From contig CAYSCM010000005.1 in the NCBI GenBank assembly GCA_964429815.1, positions 1 through 10,856 of the forward strand: a stretch of DNA of 10,856 nucleotides, written 5' to 3'. The DNA comes from an uncultured Candidatus Saccharibacteria bacterium (GTDB taxonomy: Bacteria > Patescibacteriota > Minisyncoccia > Phycocordibacterales > CAYSCM01). The notes under the pieces were generated by a model. That model was not told the DNA's origin. It searched no databases and saw nothing but the letters and a program-made list of their open reading frames with translations. Shown here piece after piece: positions 1 through 10,856 of this stretch. Position numbers and translations under genes: made by a program. Positions within the stretch are counted from its first letter, which is position 1. Every line of letters starts with the position of its first letter.

Positions 1-62
1 CTCAATGGTAGAGCAGCTCCCTGTTAAGGAGTTGGTTGTAGGTTCGAGTCCTACCACCGGAG
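1..62 (+). tRNA. tRNA-Asn (anticodon GUU), 5'-truncated by the window edge; CCA not encoded
   Basis: D-arm GCTCAATGGTAGAGC-like at 1-14. Anticodon stem gctcc/ggagt (16-20/28-32) with 7-nt loop CTGTTAA gives anticodon GTT. Variable loop tggtt. T-arm gtagg-TTCGAGT-cctac (38-54). 3' acceptor strand caccgga plus discriminator g (55-62). Confidence 0.8.
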
Positions 63-83
63 CAGTAACACTTAGTAACACTC

Positions 84-104
84 CATGCCCGTCGGGCATG
101 TTTC
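84..104 (+). terminator. Hairpin terminator downstream of the tRNA
   Basis: Perfect palindrome catgccc-gtc-gggcatg (84-100) followed by ttt (101-103). Confidence 0.5.
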
Positions 105-146
105 GCCTCCTGCCGGCGGTGCTTCATTCCTGAGAGAATTGCCGGC

Positions 147-362
147 ATGTCTCGCGTCACTATTACGTTTTCGATCTCTTTACTCCCCGACATGGCCGCG
201 GACTTGGATCGCGTTTGCAAAGAGGAGCACCGCACGCGGTCCGAGCTAATCCGAGAGGCACTGCGACGATATTTTGCCCTTCGCACATTTTGGAAAGACA
301 AACTCGACCAGGCTCCGCTGGAGGCTTCATCGCCTCACCCACCGCGAGCTCCTGGGCGGTGA
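147..362 (+). CDS. Ribbon-helix-helix (CopG/ParD-type) DNA-binding protein, putative antitoxin or transcriptional repressor, 71 aa
   Basis: N-terminus MSRVTITFSISLLPDMAADLDRVCKEEHRTRSELIREALRRYF matches the RHH beta-strand-helix-helix pattern (T-I-T-F/L...SELIREAL). Direct repeats tgccggc at ~110 and ~141 upstream could form an operator. No partner toxin ORF lies downstream. Confidence 0.6.
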   Translation: MSRVTITFSISLLPDMAADLDRVCKEEHRTRSELIREALRRYFALRTFWKDKLDQAPLEASSPHPPRAPGR

Positions 363-682
363 ATGAATAAACGCGCGAGCTTGCAGGGATTGATTGTGGG
401 TAATCGAGGCCTATATGGCGCGCTCGGGCAAGGGATTTCTCATGGAGGTCCACATGCCTTGGAGTTCTTGGACTAAGAGCGGAAGCGGTGAATCGAAGAG
501 CAAAAGCGTCGAAGCCTCAAGAAGCTCGAGCGGAAACAGGGAGACGCACCACCTGAGCACGGCAGGAGGTGGACGCCACCACTCCGGCGGAGGCGACAGA
601 GGCAATCACACGCACGTCGTCGTTCAACACCGTGAGGGCCGCAGCACGGCCCACGCCGTCCCTCACAAGCATAATCGATAGA

Positions 683-1096
683 CTATCGGACTTGCGGAGA
701 GCCGCTGCCGCCCCTGAGCAGCGGCTCGATTTTTTTGTACTCTCTTGCTGCATCAAAAGCTTTGTACGACTGACTATATTCATGAGCGCCCTCGCAATAG
801 ACCGACACATCGAGCGCAAAATCTCTGACCTGCGAAGACAGCTGCTCAATTTCTGATATCAGAAAGAAGTAGGCCGAGAGTGGCATGTCGGTCTCGCCTC
901 TCTTGAGCTTTCTGAGCCCATACTCGAGCATGGCGCGTACGTCGATCGCGTCGACATTGAGAAATCCGATCAGCTTGGGGAGATGAGGGTTGTTCTTGTT
1001 ATCTGCCAGGAACTCGGCAAACGACTGACGCGATTCGTCAGAAAGCTTTGCTGCCACCCTTTCTTCGGCTGATGTCATGACGCGAGCATAGCACAC
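683..1096 (-). CDS. Hypothetical protein, 137 aa (131 aa if it starts at the ATG at 1078)
   Basis: The translation has protein-like composition (…KLIGFLNVDAIDVRAMLEYGLRKLKRGETDMPLSAYFFLISEIEQLSSQVRDFALD…), unlike the overlapping alternative-frame ORFs, which are R/S/A-rich. No recognisable motif. No clear SD. Confidence 0.45.
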   Translation of the reverse strand: MCYARVMTSAEERVAAKLSDESRQSFAEFLADNKNNPHLPKLIGFLNVDAIDVRAMLEYGLRKLKRGETDMPLSAYFFLISEIEQLSSQVRDFALDVSVYCEGAHEYSQSYKAFDAAREYKKIEPLLRGGSGSPQVR

Positions 1097-1199
1097 TCGC
1101 TATGAAGATCGGATTGAGCCTCCATCGCGATTGCCGTGGAGAAAAAATGGACTCAGTTCGATAGTGCGCGAGACCCCGCAGTCGAAGGTTTTTGAAAAC

Positions 1200-1379
1200 T
1201 TAGTTCGTCTCGTTTTTATTCGAGTCCATTTCGGGAGTTTGTAAGCGCTCGTGGATGCGCAGAACGACCGTTAGGTACTGACGCAGGTTATAGAGCCCCT
1301 CTTCCCTTCTCGCCTTTCTGGCTCGAGGCATGAGGCTTTGGATAAAAGCGTTCGGGTCAAACTTCTTCTTTTTGATCAT
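1200..1379 (-). CDS. Possible small basic protein, 59 aa (MIKKKKFDPNAFIQSLMPRARKARREEGLYNLRQYLTVVLRIHERLQTPEMDSNKNETN)
   Basis: ATG-initiated ORF missed by the 60-aa ORF cutoff. Lys/Arg-rich N-terminus. Same strand as, and ~100 bp upstream of, the 683..1096 ORF. No SD and no homology recognised. Confidence 0.2.
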   Translation of the reverse strand: MIKKKKFDPNAFIQSLMPRARKARREEGLYNLRQYLTVVLRIHERLQTPEMDSNKNETN

Positions 1380-1467
1380 TGCGGCACCCTACTTGATTGA
1401 TGAAGGAAAGCTACATCGGCGTGAGAATAAGGTACCGATCCGCAAGGGCTGATGAGGTGCGCCCGGT

Positions 1468-1496
1468 GGCTGCATGCTAAAATGAAGCATGCAGCC
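1468..1496. promoter_or_regulatory. Perfect 10-bp inverted repeat ggctgcatgc-N9-gcatgcagcc overlapping the start codon of the 1489 ORF (candidate operator or RNA hairpin)
   Basis: Read directly from the sequence. The right arm contains the ATG at 1489. Confidence 0.45.
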
Positions 1497-1725
1497 GTCT
1501 TCAACTTGGACCCCAGAAGAGTGGCGGGAGTTCGAAGGTAAGCTTCGCCTTCTGCCACTCGATGATCTCGCCGCTCTCTCTGGCAGGACCGGCCTTACAT
1601 TTACACGGCCCGCATCGGAGCTCACCAGAGAGGATTACATTGGCGCGCTCGACGAGTCTGACAAAACAGAGCTCTTGAAGGCGTACGACGAAGTAGTTTC
1701 CCGCCGAGGTCGACAGAACACCTAG
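1489..1725 (+). CDS. Small HeH/SAP (Rho-N-like) motif protein, 78 aa, hypothetical
   Basis: LLPLDDLAALSGRTGLTFTRPASELTREDYIGAL fits the helix-extended-helix pattern LxxLxxxELxxxAxxxGLxxxxxxxK/RxELIxxL of SAP/Rho-N/LEM domains. Protein-like composition. Convergent with doc. Confidence 0.45.
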   Translation: MQPSSTWTPEEWREFEGKLRLLPLDDLAALSGRTGLTFTRPASELTREDYIGALDESDKTELLKAYDEVVSRRGRQNT

Positions 1726-1730
1726 GTCTT

Positions 1731-2090
1731 TCACTCCTTCGCGAAGAGAAGATTTGCAATCTGGCGAATGACTGACTGGTGGTCGTCCTCCTGGATCTTC
1801 TCGATAAACACCGCAAGCTCGTCGAGCGTTGGGTTGTCGCCGCCAAAGTTCGGTGAGAGAGCGTTGACCTCACAGACGACGCTGAACACGAGACAGGCGG
1901 TGCGTTTGTTGCCGTCGGTGAACGGGTGATCTTTGATGAGGAAATAGATATACGCCACAGCCTTCTCTTCGATCGTGGCGTAGTTGGGTGCTCCGTAGTG
2001 GGCGCCCGTGATGTTCACGACGATAGACTCGACGATCTGCTGCGCCGAGACCGTCAGAGGGAATGAGACCAGCCCCTCCTTATGCAGCAA
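1731..2090 (-). CDS. doc: Doc (death-on-curing) toxin, Fic/Doc family kinase. Probable TTG start at 2090; the maximal ORF runs to a GTG at 2159
   Basis: Diagnostic Doc motif H-P-F-T-D-G-N-K-R (HxFx[D/N][A/G]NKR) in IKDHPFTDGNKRTA. N-terminal region IVESIVVNITGAHYG aligns to phage P1 Doc LIALHDANISRYGG. Starting at TTG gives a Doc-sized ~119-aa protein that overlaps the upstream ORF's stop by 11 nt. The GTG start at 2159 would overlap the upstream ORF by 80 nt. Confidence 0.85.
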   Translation of the reverse strand: MLHKEGLVSFPLTVSAQQIVESIVVNITGAHYGAPNYATIEEKAVAYIYFLIKDHPFTDGNKRTACLVFSVVCEVNALSPNFGGDNPTLDELAVFIEKIQEDDHQSVIRQIANLLFAKE

Positions 2091-2271
2091 CTCGTATACG
2101 AGGCAGACGCTTTTCGGCGGTACGAGTTGAAATGTTCTTTTTCCCGGTGTCGTAGTCACGAAGCGATTCTAAGACGGGCAGGTTCTTCTTGAGCTGCCCT
2201 TGTGCAACCTTCTCAAAGGATCCTTTTGCTGTTGTGCGGCGTTTGCTAGCCATACGGCGATTATACCTCAT
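2080..2271 (-). CDS. Putative antitoxin partner of Doc (not recognisably Phd/YefM-like). In-frame starts at TTG 2286, ATG 2271 and ATG 2253
   Basis: Small basic ORF immediately upstream of doc, whose TAA stop is embedded in the doc 5' region. It is placed by its position alone, which matches the toxin-antitoxin operon arrangement. Sequence …MASKRRTTAKGSFEKVAQGQLKKNLPVLESLRDYDTGKK…. Confidence 0.5.
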   Translation of the reverse strand: MRYNRRMASKRRTTAKGSFEKVAQGQLKKNLPVLESLRDYDTGKKNISTRTAEKRLPRIRVAA

Positions 2272-2286
2272 AATCGACACAATCAA
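2254..2286 (-). promoter_or_regulatory. Candidate sigma70-type promoter of the antitoxin-doc operon: TTGATT (2286..2281) - 15 bp - TATAAT (2265..2260), with ATG 2253 only 6 nt downstream (possible leaderless transcript)
   Basis: Hexamers read directly on the minus strand. The spacer is short (15 bp), so the call is tentative. Confidence 0.35.
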
Positions 2287-2407
2287 AAATGAAGCGACGC
2301 GGATACGATTCTAAGAGTCTAGAGTTGCATCCTTGGCTACCTAGACAATTTCTAAACGTGTGGTTGTATTCAGTTGGAGACTAACTGGTTCGAAGGGAGC
2401 AAAATCC

Positions 2408-2713
2408 ATGTCACTCGATCAGTGGCTTTTTCTAATCGGCGCAGGTTGGTGGCTCATCGTTGGAATGATCAGTACGCTCGTCAGCGAATACCGCACACAG
2501 TCCATCGTCGTGGTGATCGCCCAGATCCCGATCTGGGTTTTGATGCCATTGTGCTGCGTCGCTTGGCTAGCAAATAATTGGGCGACGAGTGAAGGCGGTG
2601 TTGCCGGTACAATCGTATTGGCCGCGATCTGCTGGCCCATTGCGGCGTTTCTCATGCATGCACTTGTCAAAGACCTTCGCGGTCATGGAGACCACGAGCC
2701 GCAGCACACCTAA
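2408..2713 (+). CDS. Small integral membrane protein (2 predicted TM helices), hypothetical, 101 aa
   Basis: MSLDQWLFLIGAGWWLIVGMISTLV… followed by IPIWVLMPLCCVAWLANNW…GTIVLAAICWPIAAFLM. GGGAG lies 10 nt upstream of ATG 2408, one of the few SD-like sites in the window. The longer ORF from 2360 lacks an RBS. Confidence 0.55.
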   Translation: MSLDQWLFLIGAGWWLIVGMISTLVSEYRTQSIVVVIAQIPIWVLMPLCCVAWLANNWATSEGGVAGTIVLAAICWPIAAFLMHALVKDLRGHGDHEPQHT

Positions 2714-2991
2714 GCACCCTTCGTCAGCGCCGTTCGCCACTGTGGTGGATGGCGCCTTCTTTTATGCCGTCCCCAACTCTTTCTCGACCTGCGTGGTAAA
2801 GTGTTTCAACAAGACGTCGAATGTTGCCTTCACGGCCATTCGAGGTGTGTCCCGAACAAGTGAGCAAACGAGAGCCGCGCGAAAGCGTGCTTCCGCATGA
2901 CCGAGCTTGCAACGACGGCAAGCCCTGCTTACCGCCGGAGTTTGATATTTTGAGCCATGATTTTGCCTACCCTTGCGGGGGGTTAAAGCTT

Positions 2992-3020
2992 TTGAAGATT
3001 CAGATAATTGGTAATATACT
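2992..3020 (+). promoter_or_regulatory. Candidate promoter TTGAAG-17bp-TATACT for the 3075 gene. An alternative -10 TATTAAT lies at 3054-3060.
   Basis: AT-rich island in a GC-rich window, with near-consensus hexamers and 17-bp spacing. Confidence 0.4.
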
Positions 3021-3074
3021 AGTCGCAAAACCGTCTTATACGGTAATTACAAGGTATTAATTTTATTTCATCAT

Positions 3075-3752
3075 ATGAGAAGAATTGCATTAATGCTTGG
3101 ATCCCTTGGGTTTCTTGCAGTAGGTAGCGTGGCGTTCGCGCAGACAGCGTCCACGACTACTAGTGGCACAACAACTGCAGCCCCCGCACAGCAGATAGTT
3201 CTGCAGATTGGCCCCACAGGCAAGGTTCTTTTGCGCGGCACCATTGATTCAGTGTCGGCGACGTCTCTCACCGTCAAGAGCTGGGGCGGTGATTGGACTA
3301 TAAACGTACCCGCGTCTGCTGGGGTCATGCCGCAGGGCGTTGCGCTCTCAAGCTTCCATCAGGGTGACTTTGTCGGAGTTCATGGAACGGTCAACCAAAG
3401 CAGCAGTTGGACCATTGACGCAACCCTCGTGCGCGACTGGACCGCGCGTCAAGCATTGAATCAAGAGATAAAGAACAATGTTCAGACGGTACATCGGGAA
3501 ATGGCAGCCGGACCGAGAACAATCCAGGGAGTCCTTAGCAACCTGAATGCGTCAGCACAGACCTTCACGCTCACATCCTCAGAGGGTACCGCTTACTCGG
3601 TTACGCTGGCTTCGGGCGCAAAACTTCTCGCTCAAAATTGGGCGACGCTTGATCTTAGCAAGGTGAGCAACGGGGATACGGTTCGCGTATACGGAACGAT
3701 CTCGGGCTCGGCAATATCAGCGACGATCTTCCGAGATGTGTCGGTGAAATAA
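3075..3752 (+). CDS. Secreted protein with two tandem DUF5666-like beta domains, 225 aa
   Basis: Sec signal peptide MRRIALMLGSLGFLAVGSVAFA|Q, then a T/S/A-rich linker. The ~85-aa module is present twice (GKVLLRGTIDSVSATSLTVKSWGGDWTINV…GDFVGVHGTV…TIDATLV and RTIQGVLSNLNASAQTFTLTSSEGTAYSVTL…GDTVRVYGTISGSAISATIF). The pattern G-V/I-…-TLTV/TFTL…GD-V-V-G matches the DUF5666 family from memory. Confidence 0.75.
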   Translation: MRRIALMLGSLGFLAVGSVAFAQTASTTTSGTTTAAPAQQIVLQIGPTGKVLLRGTIDSVSATSLTVKSWGGDWTINVPASAGVMPQGVALSSFHQGDFVGVHGTVNQSSSWTIDATLVRDWTARQALNQEIKNNVQTVHREMAAGPRTIQGVLSNLNASAQTFTLTSSEGTAYSVTLASGAKLLAQNWATLDLSKVSNGDTVRVYGTISGSAISATIFRDVSVK

Positions 3753-4969: not shown

Positions 4970-5305
4970 ATGAAGAAATTTTTAGCACTCCTCAATGCCC
5001 CGCTCGCCTCCTTCGATAGGGCGCTCAAAATGCCAAAAGAGGATATGGGCCCGGCAATGGAGGCGTGGAACACATGGATGGCCGCGCACAAGAAAGATCT
5101 CATTGACCCGGGTGCTCCTGTCGGCAAGAGCATGAAAGTCACTCCCGCCGGAGCAGAAAAGTTCCGCAACCAGGTCGGCGGCTACATGGTGGTCCAGGCG
5201 AAATCGCTCGAGGAGGCGGCCAAACTGTTCGGTAAAGGCCACCCGCACTATATGCTCGAGAACGCATGGGTCGAGGTGACGGAAATACTGCCGATGGATA
5301 TGTAA
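4970..5305 (+). CDS. YciI-like / dimeric alpha+beta-barrel (Dabb) family protein, 111 aa
   Basis: MKKFLALLNAPL… …GGYMVVQAKSLEEAAKLFGKGHPHY…VEV resembles the YCII-related domain signature. Confidence 0.55.
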   Translation: MKKFLALLNAPLASFDRALKMPKEDMGPAMEAWNTWMAAHKKDLIDPGAPVGKSMKVTPAGAEKFRNQVGGYMVVQAKSLEEAAKLFGKGHPHYMLENAWVEVTEILPMDM

Positions 5306-7542: not shown

Positions 7543-8638
7543 CATAGACCGGAGATGGCATGAACTTTCGGGGCGCCTTCCCGGTGAGCCGATTTTCAGT
7601 TTTTTCGAGAATTGGCCGGGTTCCTTTTTCTACATTCCTGTCGCGGTGGCGTGGTTTTTCTACGCGCTGCGCTACCGAAGCTTCACGCTTCCGCTCCTCA
7701 GCAATCCGTCGATAGAATTCGCGGGGCTGTGCGGAGAGAGCAAGTGCGGGGTCCTCAGCCTCTTGGGATCCTCCGGAAAGGAGCGGGTAGCCTCCTACAT
7801 GCGATTTGAAAATACCACCGGGCGCGCGAGCGCGGATGAGCTCTTGGGTAGTGCCACCGCTGGCGGCCTCCGGCTCCCCTTCGTTCTCAAACCCGACATC
7901 GGACGGCGCGGCACGGGGGTGCGCATCGTGCGGACGAAGGAAGACGTCGAAGCCTACCTTGAAGCTTTTCCGCGAGGCCGCGCTCTCATCGTCCAGCGGC
8001 TTATCGAAGAAGAAGGCGAAGCGGGGGTCATGTACCTGCGCTACCCCGGCGAAGGACGGGGGAAAATCATCTCGCTTACCCTTAAGTACTTCCCTGCCGT
8101 CGTCGGCGATGGCAGAGCAAGCCTTCGGGAGCTCATTTTGCGCGATGAGCGCGCCCGCCGGCTTGCCAAGAGCTACTTCACGTACCACAAAGATTCTCTG
8201 GAAACTATCGTGCCGCGGGGGAAACGCATAAAGTTGGTTGCTGTCGGAAACCACGTGCGCGGTTCTCTCTTTCGGGATGGCCGCCCGTTCATAACGTCGG
8301 GCATGACCGACGCATTCGACAAGATCGCGCGTGAAATCCCGCATTTCCACCTTGGACGGTTTGACGTGCGCTTCGAGAAACTCTCTGACCTCGCCGTCGG
8401 AGAAAACTTCACCATCATCGAGGTAAACGGCGCCGGAAGCGAGGCGACCCACATTTGGGACCGCCGTGCGAAGCTTTTTGACTCCTATCGAACGCTCTTT
8501 GCGCATGCCAAGGCGCTCTTCGACATCGGCCTCCACTACAAACGCGAAGGCCGTAGAGCTCCCTCGTTCGGGGAAATCGCTCGGGCCTATGTCGCGGAAA
8601 AAAAACTTCTCGCTTCGTATCCCCCGCTTACGGAGTAG
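7508..8638 (+). CDS. ATP-grasp ligase (RimK / alpha-L-glutamate-ligase-like) with an N-terminal transmembrane anchor, 376 aa
   Basis: N-terminal TM helix SFFYIPVAVAWFFYAL. ATP-grasp core: LPFVLKPDIGRRGTGVRIV (K-P…G-x-G-V), ALIVQRLIEEE, and the Mg-binding IIEVNGAGSE (E-x-N motif as in RimK/Ddl). The start overlaps dedA by 35 nt. An in-frame ATG at 7520 is an alternative. Confidence 0.8.
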   Translation: MKTTMNEPTPADIDRRWHELSGRLPGEPIFSFFENWPGSFFYIPVAVAWFFYALRYRSFTLPLLSNPSIEFAGLCGESKCGVLSLLGSSGKERVASYMRFENTTGRASADELLGSATAGGLRLPFVLKPDIGRRGTGVRIVRTKEDVEAYLEAFPRGRALIVQRLIEEEGEAGVMYLRYPGEGRGKIISLTLKYFPAVVGDGRASLRELILRDERARRLAKSYFTYHKDSLETIVPRGKRIKLVAVGNHVRGSLFRDGRPFITSGMTDAFDKIAREIPHFHLGRFDVRFEKLSDLAVGENFTIIEVNGAGSEATHIWDRRAKLFDSYRTLFAHAKALFDIGLHYKREGRRAPSFGEIARAYVAEKKLLASYPPLTE

Positions 8639-10856
8639 AGAGCGTCGTTGATGACGTTGATGACGTTGATGACGTTGATGACGTTGATGACGTTTCGACT
8701 ATAACGGTGCGCGTGCTCGTCGCGGTGTTTCCCGCTGCATCGGTCGCGACGTAGTCGATAGTATGGGTGCCAGGAAGACCAGTATTGAGAGAAACTTCCA
8801 TGACAGCGACCCCATCGACGTAGGTCGTATATCCGAGGTTTTGGCTCACATTGTCGGAGACGGTGGCGCCAAGGTCGGAATACGCCTCTCCCACGTGAAT
8901 GGTGGCGGGGTTATTACCTTGTATGACGATAGTCGGCGGCGTCGAATCCAAAGAGGTTTTCGAGATACTCCCTCCCGATGATGTGCTGCTGGAACTTACG
9001 CTCAAGCTTCCTGTTGTACCTGCCGCCGCGGAGGCTGAGAGGAGTTTCACGAGGTCATCTTTCGTCACGCACACGCCGCTGACGCACAACTTTTCGACAT
9101 AGACAATGTCGGAGTGGACTTCCTTTGCGAACACGCGATCGAACACTCCGGCCGCAGCGTAGATAGCGCCGTCGAATGCATGGACGAGTAGTTGTCCGAG
9201 AGAGGAGAGCGCGTCACGAAGTTCCTGAGAGCTGTCGGAAAACGCTCCGGCTCCTGCGACGCTCGACGTTGCCGCACCGGGAGGTGCAACGAGATATGAA
9301 ATCGTCGTCGTCGGCAAAAGCGGAGCGACAAGGGCATGGAGCTCCTGGACGGCGGAGACGAGGTAGGGGGTAAAGCCCGCATAATTGAGGGCGAGCGTCC
9401 CCCAACTACTTTGATATACCAGATCGGGTGCGATCTTCTGAACTTCTTGCGCAAGAAAACCTGTGTGAGTCGGGGTTCCTGAAGCCTCGGCAAGCCAGTT
9501 ATAGGTCACGGGATTAAGGGACAAGACCGTTCCAAGTGCGGGGGCGAGCTTCTCGATATTATTTTTAAGCGTCGCATCGGACGAACAGGTAACACCGGTC
9601 GTCGGGATGATCCAACAACCGCCAGCAGCATTACCGAAGGCAGCGACGGCAGTGGCGGCGCCCACGGAAGCATTGCCAACGGAGAGAAGGGACGAGGTTG
9701 CGGTTGTTGTGCCGATACCGACACTGCCCGTGTAGTTAATCGTGATGGTCGAAGTGCTCGTCGTTGCAAAGCTATCCGAGCTCGTGGCGATGTAGAGGTT
9801 CCCGCCGTTGGAGCGTATAGACCAGTGCTTTTGGTTAGACCCTGCGCTCGGATCGGTAAGGGTAAGCTGTGGACCGGTCGAAGATGCGATTTGAAGTGCC
9901 CACTGCGGAGTCGTGGTGCCTATGCCCAAAATCCCGCTCGGGGCTATCGTAAGAGGCCCGGGGCCTGATGAGGTCGCATAGGTAGAAGGAGAGGATGTCG
10001 AGAAGTACAGAAAGCCGCCGGCATTTCTGAAGCTCCAGTGAACGTTCGTAAGGGAGGATGGGTCCGAGAGCGCAAGTTGTGCTCCGGTCGAGCTCGCAAT
10101 TTGGAGGGCCCACTGCGGTGAGGTCGTGCCGATGCCGACCTTGAGCGCTCCGGCGAGGGCGAGCGCAGTGGTATCGGTCGTCGAAGTTGCCCATTGAGTA
10201 CAGCCCGCCGCAGTGATGAGCCCATTTTTGTCCGTGCGCAGACAGGCTGTATTGGTACCCCCTAAACTTGAAAGCCAGAAATTTGTCGTTGAGGCATTCG
10301 TGCTCACAAAGTTTGTCGTGGTCGCCGAGGTGCCGGTCGCGTTCACGAAGGTGAAATTCTGGAGCGTCGTGGAGCCAGTGGCCAGAAGAGTGCTGAAGGT
10401 GCCGAGTCCCGTCGAGGTGATGTTGCCAGCGGAGAGGACGGTGGCGAAGAGATTGGTGGAAGAGGCGGTGGTTGAGAAAATGGTCGAGCTTGTGGCATTC
10501 CCCAAGGTCGTCGTGGCAAGGGTGGCGAATGAAGCGAATACGTTCGTTGAGGAAGCTGTGGTCGTAAACAACGTCGAGCTCGTGGCGTTCCCTAGTGTCG
10601 TCGTCGCCGCGTTGAGGTTGCTAGCAAAGAGATTGGTGCTGCTGGCGGTGGTCGAAAAGATGGTCGACGAGGTGGCATTCCCTAAAGTCGTGGTGGCAAG
10701 AGTGATAAAGGAAGCGAACAAGTTCGTCGAAGAGGCGGTAGTGGCAAAGAACGTCGAGCTCGTGGCATTGCCTAGAGTTGTCGTAGCCGCGTTGAGATTA
10801 CTGGCAAAGAGGTTGGTGGAGGAGGCGGTCGTTGCGAAGAAAGAGGTGCTGGTTGC
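8631..10856 (-). CDS. Large Thr/Ser/Ala-rich repetitive fibre / tailspike-like protein with a C-terminal S74 intramolecular-chaperone domain, an Ig-like (DUF5011-like) domain and a (TSS)5 tail. The 5' end (N-terminus) lies beyond the window end.
   Basis: The minus-strand frame stays open from 10856 to the TAA at 8628-8630. The apparent start at 10721 is a TTG inside a repeat, and upstream codons continue the same 30-aa repeat. 30-aa repeats ATTTLGNATSSTxFxTTASSTNLFAS… span ~10390-10856. A duplicated module IGTT(S/T)PQWALQIASSTG…W S(F/I)R(N/S)(A/N)GG(F/N)LY lies at ~9700-10140. The S74 signature CSS|DATLKNNIEKLAPALGTVLSLNPVTYNWL…GFLAQEVQKIAPDLV…GTLALNYAGFTPYLVSAVQEL (SDxxxK; cleavage Ser codon ~9579-9581) is followed by a ~160-aa chaperone body. 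PTIVIQGNNPATIHVGEAYSDLGATVSDNV…THTIDYVATDAAGNTATSTRTVIV lies at ~8694-8939. Confidence 0.85.
8647..8691. repeat. Perfect 9-bp x5 tandem repeat (gttgatgac)5 encoding (TSS)5 at the C-terminus of the fibre protein
   Basis: Read directly. Partial copies flank it (8644-8646, 8692-8694). The unit length is a multiple of 3, so copy-number change keeps the frame. Confidence 0.9.
10390..10856. repeat. Imperfect ~90-bp (30-aa) tandem repeats, at least 5 copies in an alternating two-flavour (60-aa) pattern, continuing beyond the window
   Basis: Protein-level repeats (…NLNA-ATTTLGNATSSTxF-TTASSTNLFAS-FxTL-ATTTLGNATSST…). DNA copies are recognisably similar but carry synonymous and near-synonymous differences. 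Confidence 0.8.

Follow-up and report, generated by a model that had tools for sequence, protein, structure and literature searches.

We examined a 10,856-nucleotide stretch of DNA (contig CAYSCM010000005.1; hereafter the window) that carries at one end the 3′ portion of a gene for a fibre protein with a Peptidase S74 domain, the self-cleaving chaperone of phage tailspikes. The open reading frame (ORF) occupies positions 8631–10856 of the minus strand and comprises 742 codons without a stop, followed by a TAA at 8628–8630. It is still open at base 10856, the end of what appears to be a complete 10,856-bp contig, with the 5′ part of the gene and the N-terminus of the protein lying beyond; a TTG at 10721, given in the ORF listing, is merely the first start-like codon in this frame. 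Residue numbers refer to the 742-residue fragment and exceed those of a first-pass annotation of the window by 45, such that its Ser381 is our Ser426. The fragment is rich in Thr (18%), Ser (15%) and Ala (13%), and the hidden Markov model (HMM) searches proposed in that annotation placed both an S74 domain and an immunoglobulin (Ig)-like domain above their Pfam thresholds, in the single frame of the ORF.

The N-terminal part of the fragment is made up of fibre regions. Residues 1–150 (10407–10856, minus strand) are the fibre shaft and consist of five in-register 30-residue repeats (ATSSTxFxTTASSTNLFASxxxxATTTLGN), an array that runs out of the contig and that Tandem Repeats Finder resolved at the DNA level as periods of 90 (4.2 copies) and 180 (2.0 copies). 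Between the shaft and the S74 domain, residues 236–403 (9648–10151, minus strand) form two units of ~70 residues and a third, partial unit, which open with (V/L)GIGTT(S/T)P..(A)L and each hold HWS(F/I)R..GG.LY. The fragment matched 13 PHROG families of tail fibres and baseplates, one of which (phrog_5668, tail fibre) aligned with residues 18–511.

Pfam placed Peptidase_S74 (PF13884) at residues 426–481 with 58.1 bits (cutoff 22; E = 1.1e-15; profile positions 1–58 of 58). The whole S74, or intramolecular chaperone auto-processing (ICA), domain spans residues 424–513 (9318–9587, minus strand), as delimited by Pfam, an AlphaFold2 (AF2) model, Foldseek and the ends of the PHROG matches. It begins with the S-D-x-x-x-K dyad motif (S426-D-A-T-L-K431) within SSDATLK at residues 425–431; the codons of Ser426 and Lys431 lie at 9579–9581 and 9564–9566, the former exactly where the first-pass annotation had put the catalytic Ser. 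Both residues were invariant in an alignment of family members (24 of 24), and the dyad positions held Ser and Lys in 229 of the 230 S74 domains of the clade. We modeled residues 404–742 as a monomer from the 24-sequence family alignment, and the S74 part was predicted with high confidence (predicted local distance difference test, pLDDT, 85–94) and ended in a helix at residues 492–513. Foldseek superimposed this part on the crystal structure of the ICA domain of the eukaryotic protein MyRF (7dc3_B; E = 7e-4; 107 columns), and among predicted viral structures 187 S74 models matched at E ≤ 1e-3 with a root-mean-square deviation of ~2–3 Å, solely over the ~90–110 S74 columns. A single-sequence phmmer search found no match in the PDB; with a family profile, matches were obtained to tail fibres (8jov, E = 2.6e-15; 6f45, E = 1.6e-10), to MyRF (E = 9e-10) and to a phi29-type neck appendage. 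Together, the HMM, dyad and fold results identify the fragment as a bona fide S74/ICA-domain protein.

In the tail fibre pb1 of phage T5 the Thr1263/Ser1264 bond is cut, the Ser departs with the chaperone, and only the processed fibre binds its receptor (PMC4690869). Since T5 pb1 is cut N-terminal to the catalytic Ser, the predicted scissile bond here is Ser425/Ser426 (9579–9584, minus strand), and the expected product would be a fragment of 317 residues and 32.3 kDa (residues 426–742). The first-pass annotation, which placed the cut after the catalytic Ser and estimated ~316 residues, came close in size and, by this precedent, misplaced the bond. A Cys-x10-Cys loop (GGCWIIPTTGVTC; residues 413–424, positions 9582–9620) abuts the predicted scissile Ser-Ser bond; it is kept as GSCYINPTTTSLSC in the closest subfamily from the candidate phyla radiation (CPR) and is absent from a subfamily that carries TQSSDQRLK. 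A disulfide in this loop could position the cleavage site. Counting this loop, all six Cys of the fragment fall in three close pairs (205/219, 413/424 and 591/596), a pairing that we take as typical of extracytoplasmic disulfide loops and that would fit an oxidising location.

The S74 domain does not lie at the extreme C-terminus, as it does in phage proteins. PHROG matches that reached the end of S74 stopped at residues 506–513, within 6–33 positions of where the phage profiles themselves end C-terminally. On the evidence of these tail-fibre profiles and of the AF2 model, we place the canonical chaperone end at residue ~513 (position 9318), and the extension beyond it therefore amounts to ~229 residues and not the ~135 first annotated. 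It begins with a variable linker (residues 514–588; 9093–9317, minus strand) that was modeled with low confidence, includes a predicted helix at ~542–568, and has a mean identity of 23% within the family. There follows a two-Cys β-hairpin plus helix (residues 589–611; 9024–9092, minus strand; (E)LCvxxxCVTxxxLxxLL; pLDDT ~60–73), whose Cys591 and Cys596 were invariant in the 24-member alignment, and a Ser/Thr/Gly-rich spacer (residues 612–639; 8940–9023, minus strand), recognised from the sequence and modeled at pLDDT below 50. The next element is the Ig-like domain (PF16403, Bact_surface_Ig-like, formerly DUF5011), which Pfam, AF2 and Foldseek delimit to residues 640–720 (8697–8939, minus strand). 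Its Pfam match covers residues 644–720 (46.4 bits; cutoff 27; E = 4e-12), its pLDDT is ~95, and Foldseek matched it to the cadherin-like modules of SraP (4m02), Big_3 (2kpn) and PKD domains. The protein closes with a Ser/Thr tail, E(TSS)5TTLSTP, at residues 721–742 (8628–8696 with the TAA, minus strand), in which a perfect 9-bp × 5.4 repeat at 8646–8694 encodes (TSS)5. An Ig-like domain and a (TSS)5 tract after S74, as described in the first-pass annotation, were thus both borne out, and the S74-with-extension arrangement is confirmed as real and far beyond chance.

No segment of this C-terminal region is better conserved than the Ig domain, whose mean pairwise identity is 58%, compared with 43% for S74, 40% for the Cys hairpin and ~25% for the linkers. 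The model between S74 and Ig was weak, and the Ser/Thr linkers were disordered. No transmembrane (TM) segment was found in residues 514–742; a MyRF-like TM helix after S74 was rejected on hydropathy, the best Kyte-Doolittle 19-mer in the fragment scoring 1.41. Nor was any wall-binding family or known anchoring motif detected in the tail after S74. Most family members end in a Ser/Thr/Ala-rich tail with a terminal Gln (...TSTAQ, ...TTSQ, ...STNQ, ...DAFQ); a C-terminal Pro is found in the window protein, in the relative L021 and in a few others.

Residues 405–742 were then used as a query, which recovered 56 proteins, at least 35 of them with both S74 and PF16403. These metagenomic proteins were 30–43% identical over ~84–100% of the query; those with a named source came from Minisyncoccia or Parcubacteria, and databases label relatives merely as "tail fiber domain-containing protein". 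In the 24-member alignment the invariant positions were Ser426, Lys431, the motif GFxAQ, Gln504, Cys591, Cys596 and many positions of the Ig domain. A scan of one genome per species yielded 67 loci, and in 36 the match spanned S74 through Ig: 15 of these are from CPR bacteria, 5 are unclassified and 16 are from Alphaproteobacteria, chiefly Hyphomicrobiales. Among the last are loci of two isolates, Bradyrhizobium sp. LTSP885 and B. manausense, and one on the complete chromosome of Methylocystis parvus. A genome can have up to six loci, and CPR genomes can carry four to six paralogues, some of these proteins exceeding 3,000 residues. As dozens of loci share this uninterrupted order of domains and the frame in the window is uninterrupted, a frameshift or two-ORF artefact, the caveat raised by the first-pass annotation, is excluded.

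To survey non-terminal S74 domains more broadly, the 101-residue S74 region was compared with 1.84 billion cluster representatives, which gave 36,020 matches at E ≤ 1e-3. Among the best 150 of these 36,020, at least 100 residues followed the S74 match in 124 (median 178). Local HMMs applied to 144 of the best 150 representatives detected the Cys motif after S74 in 76 and the Ig domain in 46, and 28 of these 144 nearest representatives had two or more S74 domains. A non-terminal S74 is therefore the rule in the fibre's own clade. The earlier suggestion that the position of S74 in the window protein was singular is overstated, given these clusters, the internal ICA domain of MyRF (PMC8326128) and the fibres of Bdellovibrio (PMC10769870).

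Relatives with more complete genes were used to view the missing N-terminal part. Their ORFs reached 1,016 residues in Bradyrhizobium, 1,324 in Methylocystis and 3,327 in Kaiserbacteria, and more than 3,700 where they were cut by contig ends; the full-length architecture was confirmed for L021 (1,099 residues) and L052. An N-terminal signal peptide or TM helix was present in 13 of the 19 relatives whose ORF was closed upstream, as in the signal-peptide example MKSRFNLLIITGTLLLSFPLIASA|TSYLPGQTLNPSC.... Just after the signal peptide, the motif A(S/T)SY(L/Q)PGQTLNPxCxPxDxxC(I/V)VV is near-identical in Kaiserbacteria/Paceibacterota (L021, L052, L042) and Bradyrhizobium (L011, L014). The C-terminal regions of CPR and alphaproteobacterial members also interleaved in a crude neighbour-joining tree. 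The Bradyrhizobium loci have 56–57% GC and lie beside a serine recombinase and a primase-like gene, and the Methylocystis copy lies beside ArdC. These features suggest repeated inter-phylum transfer, probably on mobile elements.

Several relatives had further domains of their own. The 5,473-residue P0173 carries S-D-x-R-L-K copies of S74 at ~1489, 2655, 3741 and 4929, then a variant S-T-E-T-S-K copy at 5062 and finally the Ig domain; judged from this layout, it looks like a self-cleaving fibre polyprotein. Other relatives with multiple S74 domains include P0117, P0118, P0141 and P0058, among others, and the tandem order S74, variant S74 (STxxAK), Ig recurs across separate 50%-identity clusters. 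In L038:5453-6052 (Adlerbacteria) and L012:811-1410 (Hyphomicrobiales) the start of the protein resembles HTH_17, a DNA-binding helix-turn-helix (HTH) family, at 24.9 and 26.9 bits (cutoff 27); one TM helix comes next, at ~115–143, and then fibre, S74 and Ig. Such a layout would tether an HTH to the membrane and link it to a very long fibre outside the cell, a domain set that recalls MyRF in a different order. At locus L092 a gene with a faint HTH_17 match stands beside a 2,770-residue gene. The shaft of a Bradyrhizobium sp. LTSP885 protein (L011:7697-10747) contains a GDSL/SGNH hydrolase-like domain (residues 309–477; E = 7e-7, under the Pfam cutoff), and a GH5 cellulase-family gene directly follows in Methylocystis parvus (L049:10789-12234); the two hint at a polysaccharide-modifying activity as in phage tailspikes. 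Two gene calls, L093 (P0015) and P0030, begin within S74 (MLKLNPVTYNW..., past the catalytic Ser), with P0015 in a transposase-dense region, and are probably truncated pseudogene remnants of the fibre family.

We then examined whether relatives were found in cellular or viral surroundings. Relatives were encoded beside an ATP synthase operon, gap/rpiB/rpe/tkt, gatB/SecA/SecDF/FtsW, or a TRAP transporter and leuA, and the 20-kb contexts of seven relatives contained no capsid, terminase, sheath, tube or baseplate genes. The S74+Ig architecture was not found among the 2.9 million viral contigs of IMG/VR, where matches were to the Ig domain only. In the literature library available to us, which is incomplete and so provides absence of evidence only, we found no description of S74 combined with PF16403 or of S74 fibres in CPR bacteria. 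The genomic contexts and the IMG/VR result support the architecture being that of a cell-encoded family and not part of a phage or tailocin.

The window itself had a similar character. The 8.6 kb downstream of the fibre gene hold metabolic and housekeeping-type genes, with no virion, tail, sheath or baseplate genes in the window and no PHROG structural matches among the neighbours, nor any PHROG family match among the window proteins that lacked a family assignment. The annotated absence of phage genes and the panD, dedA and metabolic neighbours were thus confirmed. A 372-residue gene on the plus strand, ending at 8638, converges on the 3′ end of the fibre gene with an 11-bp overlap, and further neighbours encode a DUF5666 protein, two glyoxalase-fold proteins, a pyridoxal phosphate (PLP)-dependent cysteine-synthase-like enzyme, panD and a DedA/VTT protein. 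At the opposite end, a tRNA truncated where the contig begins has its 3′ part at positions 1–62 (Rfam RF00005, 49.6 bits, model positions 11–71; no ARAGORN call). The following ~3 kb (62–3075) have a strikingly low coding density for a small genome: no ORF exceeds 142 residues, the only family match is a Fic/Doc toxin amid small ORFs (1731–2159, minus strand), accompanied by a possible 68-residue antitoxin ORF (2080–2286, minus strand), and the other small ORFs had no Pfam or PHROG match and did not resemble the fibre family. The idea that positions 1–3200 hold a second, degenerate fibre gene was rejected, as tblastn found no match there. Similarly, a conserved gene partner was rejected after tblastn of the window's neighbour proteins against all 94 loci collected found no homologue; the fibre shaft gave one weak match only (L031) against the same loci.

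The source organism is most likely a CPR bacterium, judging from panD, whose best named matches were mostly Patescibacteria, Paceibacterota or Kaiserbacteria (69–74% identity), and from a crude neighbour-joining tree of the S74-to-C-terminus region, in which the window sequence fell among CPR-only sequences. An upstream continuation of the fibre gene was sought through exact sequences of panD, DedA, the PLP enzyme and the 372-residue protein, which returned only short Logan contigs ending in (TSS)5; one short-read contig of the same locus (L001) ends inside this repeat at position ~8675. An exact 40-mer of the fibre gene was absent from JGI metagenomes. The (TSS)5 repeat probably fragments assemblies, and its length may vary.

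The closest demonstrated system is the family of mosaic adhesive trimer (MAT) fibres of Bdellovibrio bacteriovorus, which are chromosomally encoded, signal-peptide-bearing, trimeric proteins of ~1,000 residues that sit either on the surface of the predator or where it contacts its prey (Caulton et al. 2024, PMC10769870). Thirteen of these end in S74 with SDxxxK, and for Bd3182 self-cleavage at Ser782 was shown and was lost in S782A (PMC10769870; PDB 8ojn/8onb/8onc); MAT fibres that lack S74 carry β-sandwich, TNF-like or lectin tips instead (PMC10769870). Our family profile matched MAT structures over the pre-S74 region (8ond, 8ojn and 8ol4, E = 4e-6 to 6e-5, and 8oml). Like the MAT S74 fibres, the present family has a non-phage chromosomal context, lengths of at least ~1,000 residues, a signal peptide (in relatives) and the SDxxxK dyad. 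In the MAT fibres S74 is preceded by a β-helical trimeric shaft that bears capping motifs of the form (V)G(I/G)G..P...L, to which the GIGTT(S/T)P...L units of the window protein correspond, and we liken its role to that proposed for MAT fibres, recognition of another cell's surface. In contrast, MAT S74 fibres stop at S74, whereas the window protein adds ~229 residues comprising the Cys hairpin, the Ig-like domain and the Ser/Thr tail. In MAT fibres the signal peptide is followed by a conserved β-rich N-domain of ~130 residues, and in our relatives by a different conserved, Cys-containing motif (SYxPGQTLNPxCxPxDxxC); the source organisms are CPR bacteria and Hyphomicrobiales instead of a predator.

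Phage chaperones (K1F endoNF, 3GW6; T5 pb1, 4UW8; phi29/GA-1 neck appendage, 3gud; MEROPS S74) share the HMM, the fold and the Ser-Lys spacing, and there too S74 directly follows a fibre with GIGTxxP-type motifs. The phage chaperone is the extreme C-terminus (133 residues in pb1) and folds in the cytoplasm, whereas here the domain lies within the protein, the relatives are exported proteins and the surrounding genes are cellular. MyRF has an internal ICA domain whose trimerisation-gated cleavage releases the N-terminal part (PMC8326128; PDB 7dc3), and it shares with the window protein a non-terminal S74/ICA domain, besides giving the S74 part of our model its best match among solved structures. 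MyRF is, however, a transcription factor of the eukaryotic endoplasmic reticulum membrane with a DNA-binding domain before ICA and a TM helix after it, while the window fibre has an Ig-like domain in place of the TM helix and a predicted extracytoplasmic setting. Surface adhesins with PF16403 or cadherin-like modules (Staphylococcus aureus SraP binding region, 4m02/4m03) have a similar terminal Ig module and Ser/Thr-rich spacers, but are monomeric and sortase-anchored and lack both S74 and a trimeric shaft.

We consider it reasonably probable that a very large surface fibre, an exported homotrimeric adhesin of a Patescibacteria (CPR) cell, has its C-terminal 742 residues encoded in the window, and that the S74-Ig portion of this fibre is shed as a pro-piece. 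Starting from the observed domain content and order, dyad conservation, family architecture, cellular contexts and export signals of relatives, we infer for the window protein export, trimerisation, cleavage, and a fate and role for the Ig piece, as follows. The precursor would be exported through Sec. Outside the membrane, S74 (residues 424–513) would trimerise via its C-terminal helix and nucleate folding of the upstream β-structured shaft in the C-to-N direction. Once a correct trimer had formed, the Ser426/Lys431 dyad would cut Ser425/Ser426, exposing a mature tip made of the GIGTT units ending at Ser425 and detaching a trimeric 317-residue pro-piece composed of S74, the disulfide hairpin, the Ig-like domain and a probably glycosylated Ser/Thr tail. 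The conservation of the Ig module, which exceeds that of any other part, would point to a role in biogenesis or as a module in its own right; the module may keep the C-termini in place or soluble at the envelope until the fibre has fully folded, and is less likely to be a variable receptor-binding tip. On our preferred view the extension belongs to a trimeric pro-piece that is shed, or attached only for a time, and that might have a biogenesis role or a binding role of its own, because it outconserves S74 across phyla, is joined by disordered Ser/Thr linkers and has no TM or anchor motif; this is the weakest part of our explanation.

Several points weigh against this interpretation. The N-terminus of the fibre lies outside the contig, and with it any export signal of the window protein; trimerisation and autoproteolysis are, for this clade, predictions; and counterparts of the in-trans Arg and Asp that in T5 pb1 act from upstream in ICA catalysis were not identified in the window fibre. 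Shedding a conserved Ig domain seems wasteful, and in MyRF, ICA cleavage takes place with no folding role for the stalk upstream of it (PMC8326128). Several relatives adjoin recombinase, integrase, ArdC, primase or transposase genes, which makes a link to mobile elements possible, and the taxonomic assignment is based on one protein and a crude neighbour-joining tree. A more far-reaching version, which we regard as possible though doubtful, would treat the S74 domains of the clade as extracytoplasmic, trimerisation-gated processing sites in giant secreted precursors, with the members that carry two to five S74 domains being polyproteins that yield several fibres, the trimeric Ig module freed by cleavage having a function of its own, and the whole constituting the long-sought host-recognition organelles of Paceibacterota-type CPR episymbionts, repeatedly exchanged with Hyphomicrobiales on mobile elements.

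The evidence was also weighed against explanations that assign the C-terminal piece another fate. S74 might act mainly as a trimeriser, the C-terminal piece staying in place (uncleaved or non-covalently bound) so that trimeric Ig domains form the distal ligand-binding tip. The Ig domain is indeed terminal and well folded (pLDDT ~95) and resembles the adhesin modules of SraP, Big_3 and PKD, the extension is conserved and not decaying, and MAT fibres without S74 end in β-sandwich tips (PMC10769870). Retention of the dyad in 229 of 230 domains is, however, hard to explain without catalysis, and receptor tips tend to vary more than the rest of a fibre, whereas here Ig is the most conserved (58%) across two phyla and it is the pre-S74 region that varies; the long disordered Ser/Thr linkers between S74 and Ig likewise speak against a tip, which we judge unlikely. 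It is more improbable that the protein operates as a MyRF-like switch, in which the S74-Ig piece is kept at the envelope, by Ig or the Ser/Thr tail on the wall or S-layer, and cleavage frees the N-terminal trimer as, for example, a depolymerase or bacteriocin-like agent. Release of an N-terminal part by an internal ICA domain has its precedent in MyRF (PMC8326128), one relative has the SGNH/GDSL domain in its shaft and another the adjoining GH5 gene, and many members have cleavable signal peptides instead of anchors. However, the region after S74 offers neither a TM segment nor a known anchoring motif, nor a detectable wall-binding family in the tail, while in L038 and L012 an N-terminal TM anchor would keep the fibre on the cell regardless.

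The least probable explanation, to which we give very little weight, is that the gene belongs to a prophage, a tailocin or an extracellular contractile injection system (eCIS), for which it would supply the tail fibre or tailspike, and that the companion genes lie past the contig end. The best PHROG matches are to tail fibre and baseplate families, S74-bearing fibres do occur in eCIS loci (PMC12923769), the fibre gene is cut by the contig end with its upstream neighbours out of view, and a Doc toxin and a tRNA fragment share the contig. Set against these are 8.6 kb of downstream sequence without PHROG structural matches, the lack of capsid, terminase, sheath, tube or baseplate genes in the 20-kb contexts of seven relatives, the Sec signal peptides or TM anchors borne by relatives, and the lack of an S74+Ig match in 2.9 million viral contigs, with viral structure matches confined to S74. 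Because exported precursors would misfit cytoplasmically assembled particles and no such genes were seen in the window or in the contexts of the seven relatives, the tailocin or contractile module offered as one option in the first-pass annotation is unsupported; its other option, a host surface or adhesive fibre, is supported by the cellular contexts, the export signals in 13 of 19 relatives and the absence from IMG/VR.

Taken with the preferred reading of an exported adhesin with a shed pro-piece, what is new here is the 229-residue extension and the placement of the fibre in a large and so far uncharacterised clade of bacterial fibres that are exported and have an internal S74. These exported proteins use the S74 chaperone of phages in a new layout, at an internal position with a highly conserved Ig module after it, and thereby offer a parallel in bacteria to the internal ICA domain of eukaryotic MyRF. 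The giant multi-S74 precursors and the interleaving of CPR and Hyphomicrobiales sequences are two notable side observations. For annotation, our results advise caution, as the label "tail fiber domain-containing protein" in CPR or Hyphomicrobiales genomes is no sign of a prophage. CPR genomes are roughly 1 Mb, and the four to six fibre paralogues that they can carry, some above 3,000 residues, represent a large outlay on surface structure. Apart from the type IV pili of Saccharibacteria, little has been established about how the ultra-small CPR bacteria find and hold other cells (PMC12206443), and the fibres described here may bear on the attachment of CPR bacteria to their hosts.

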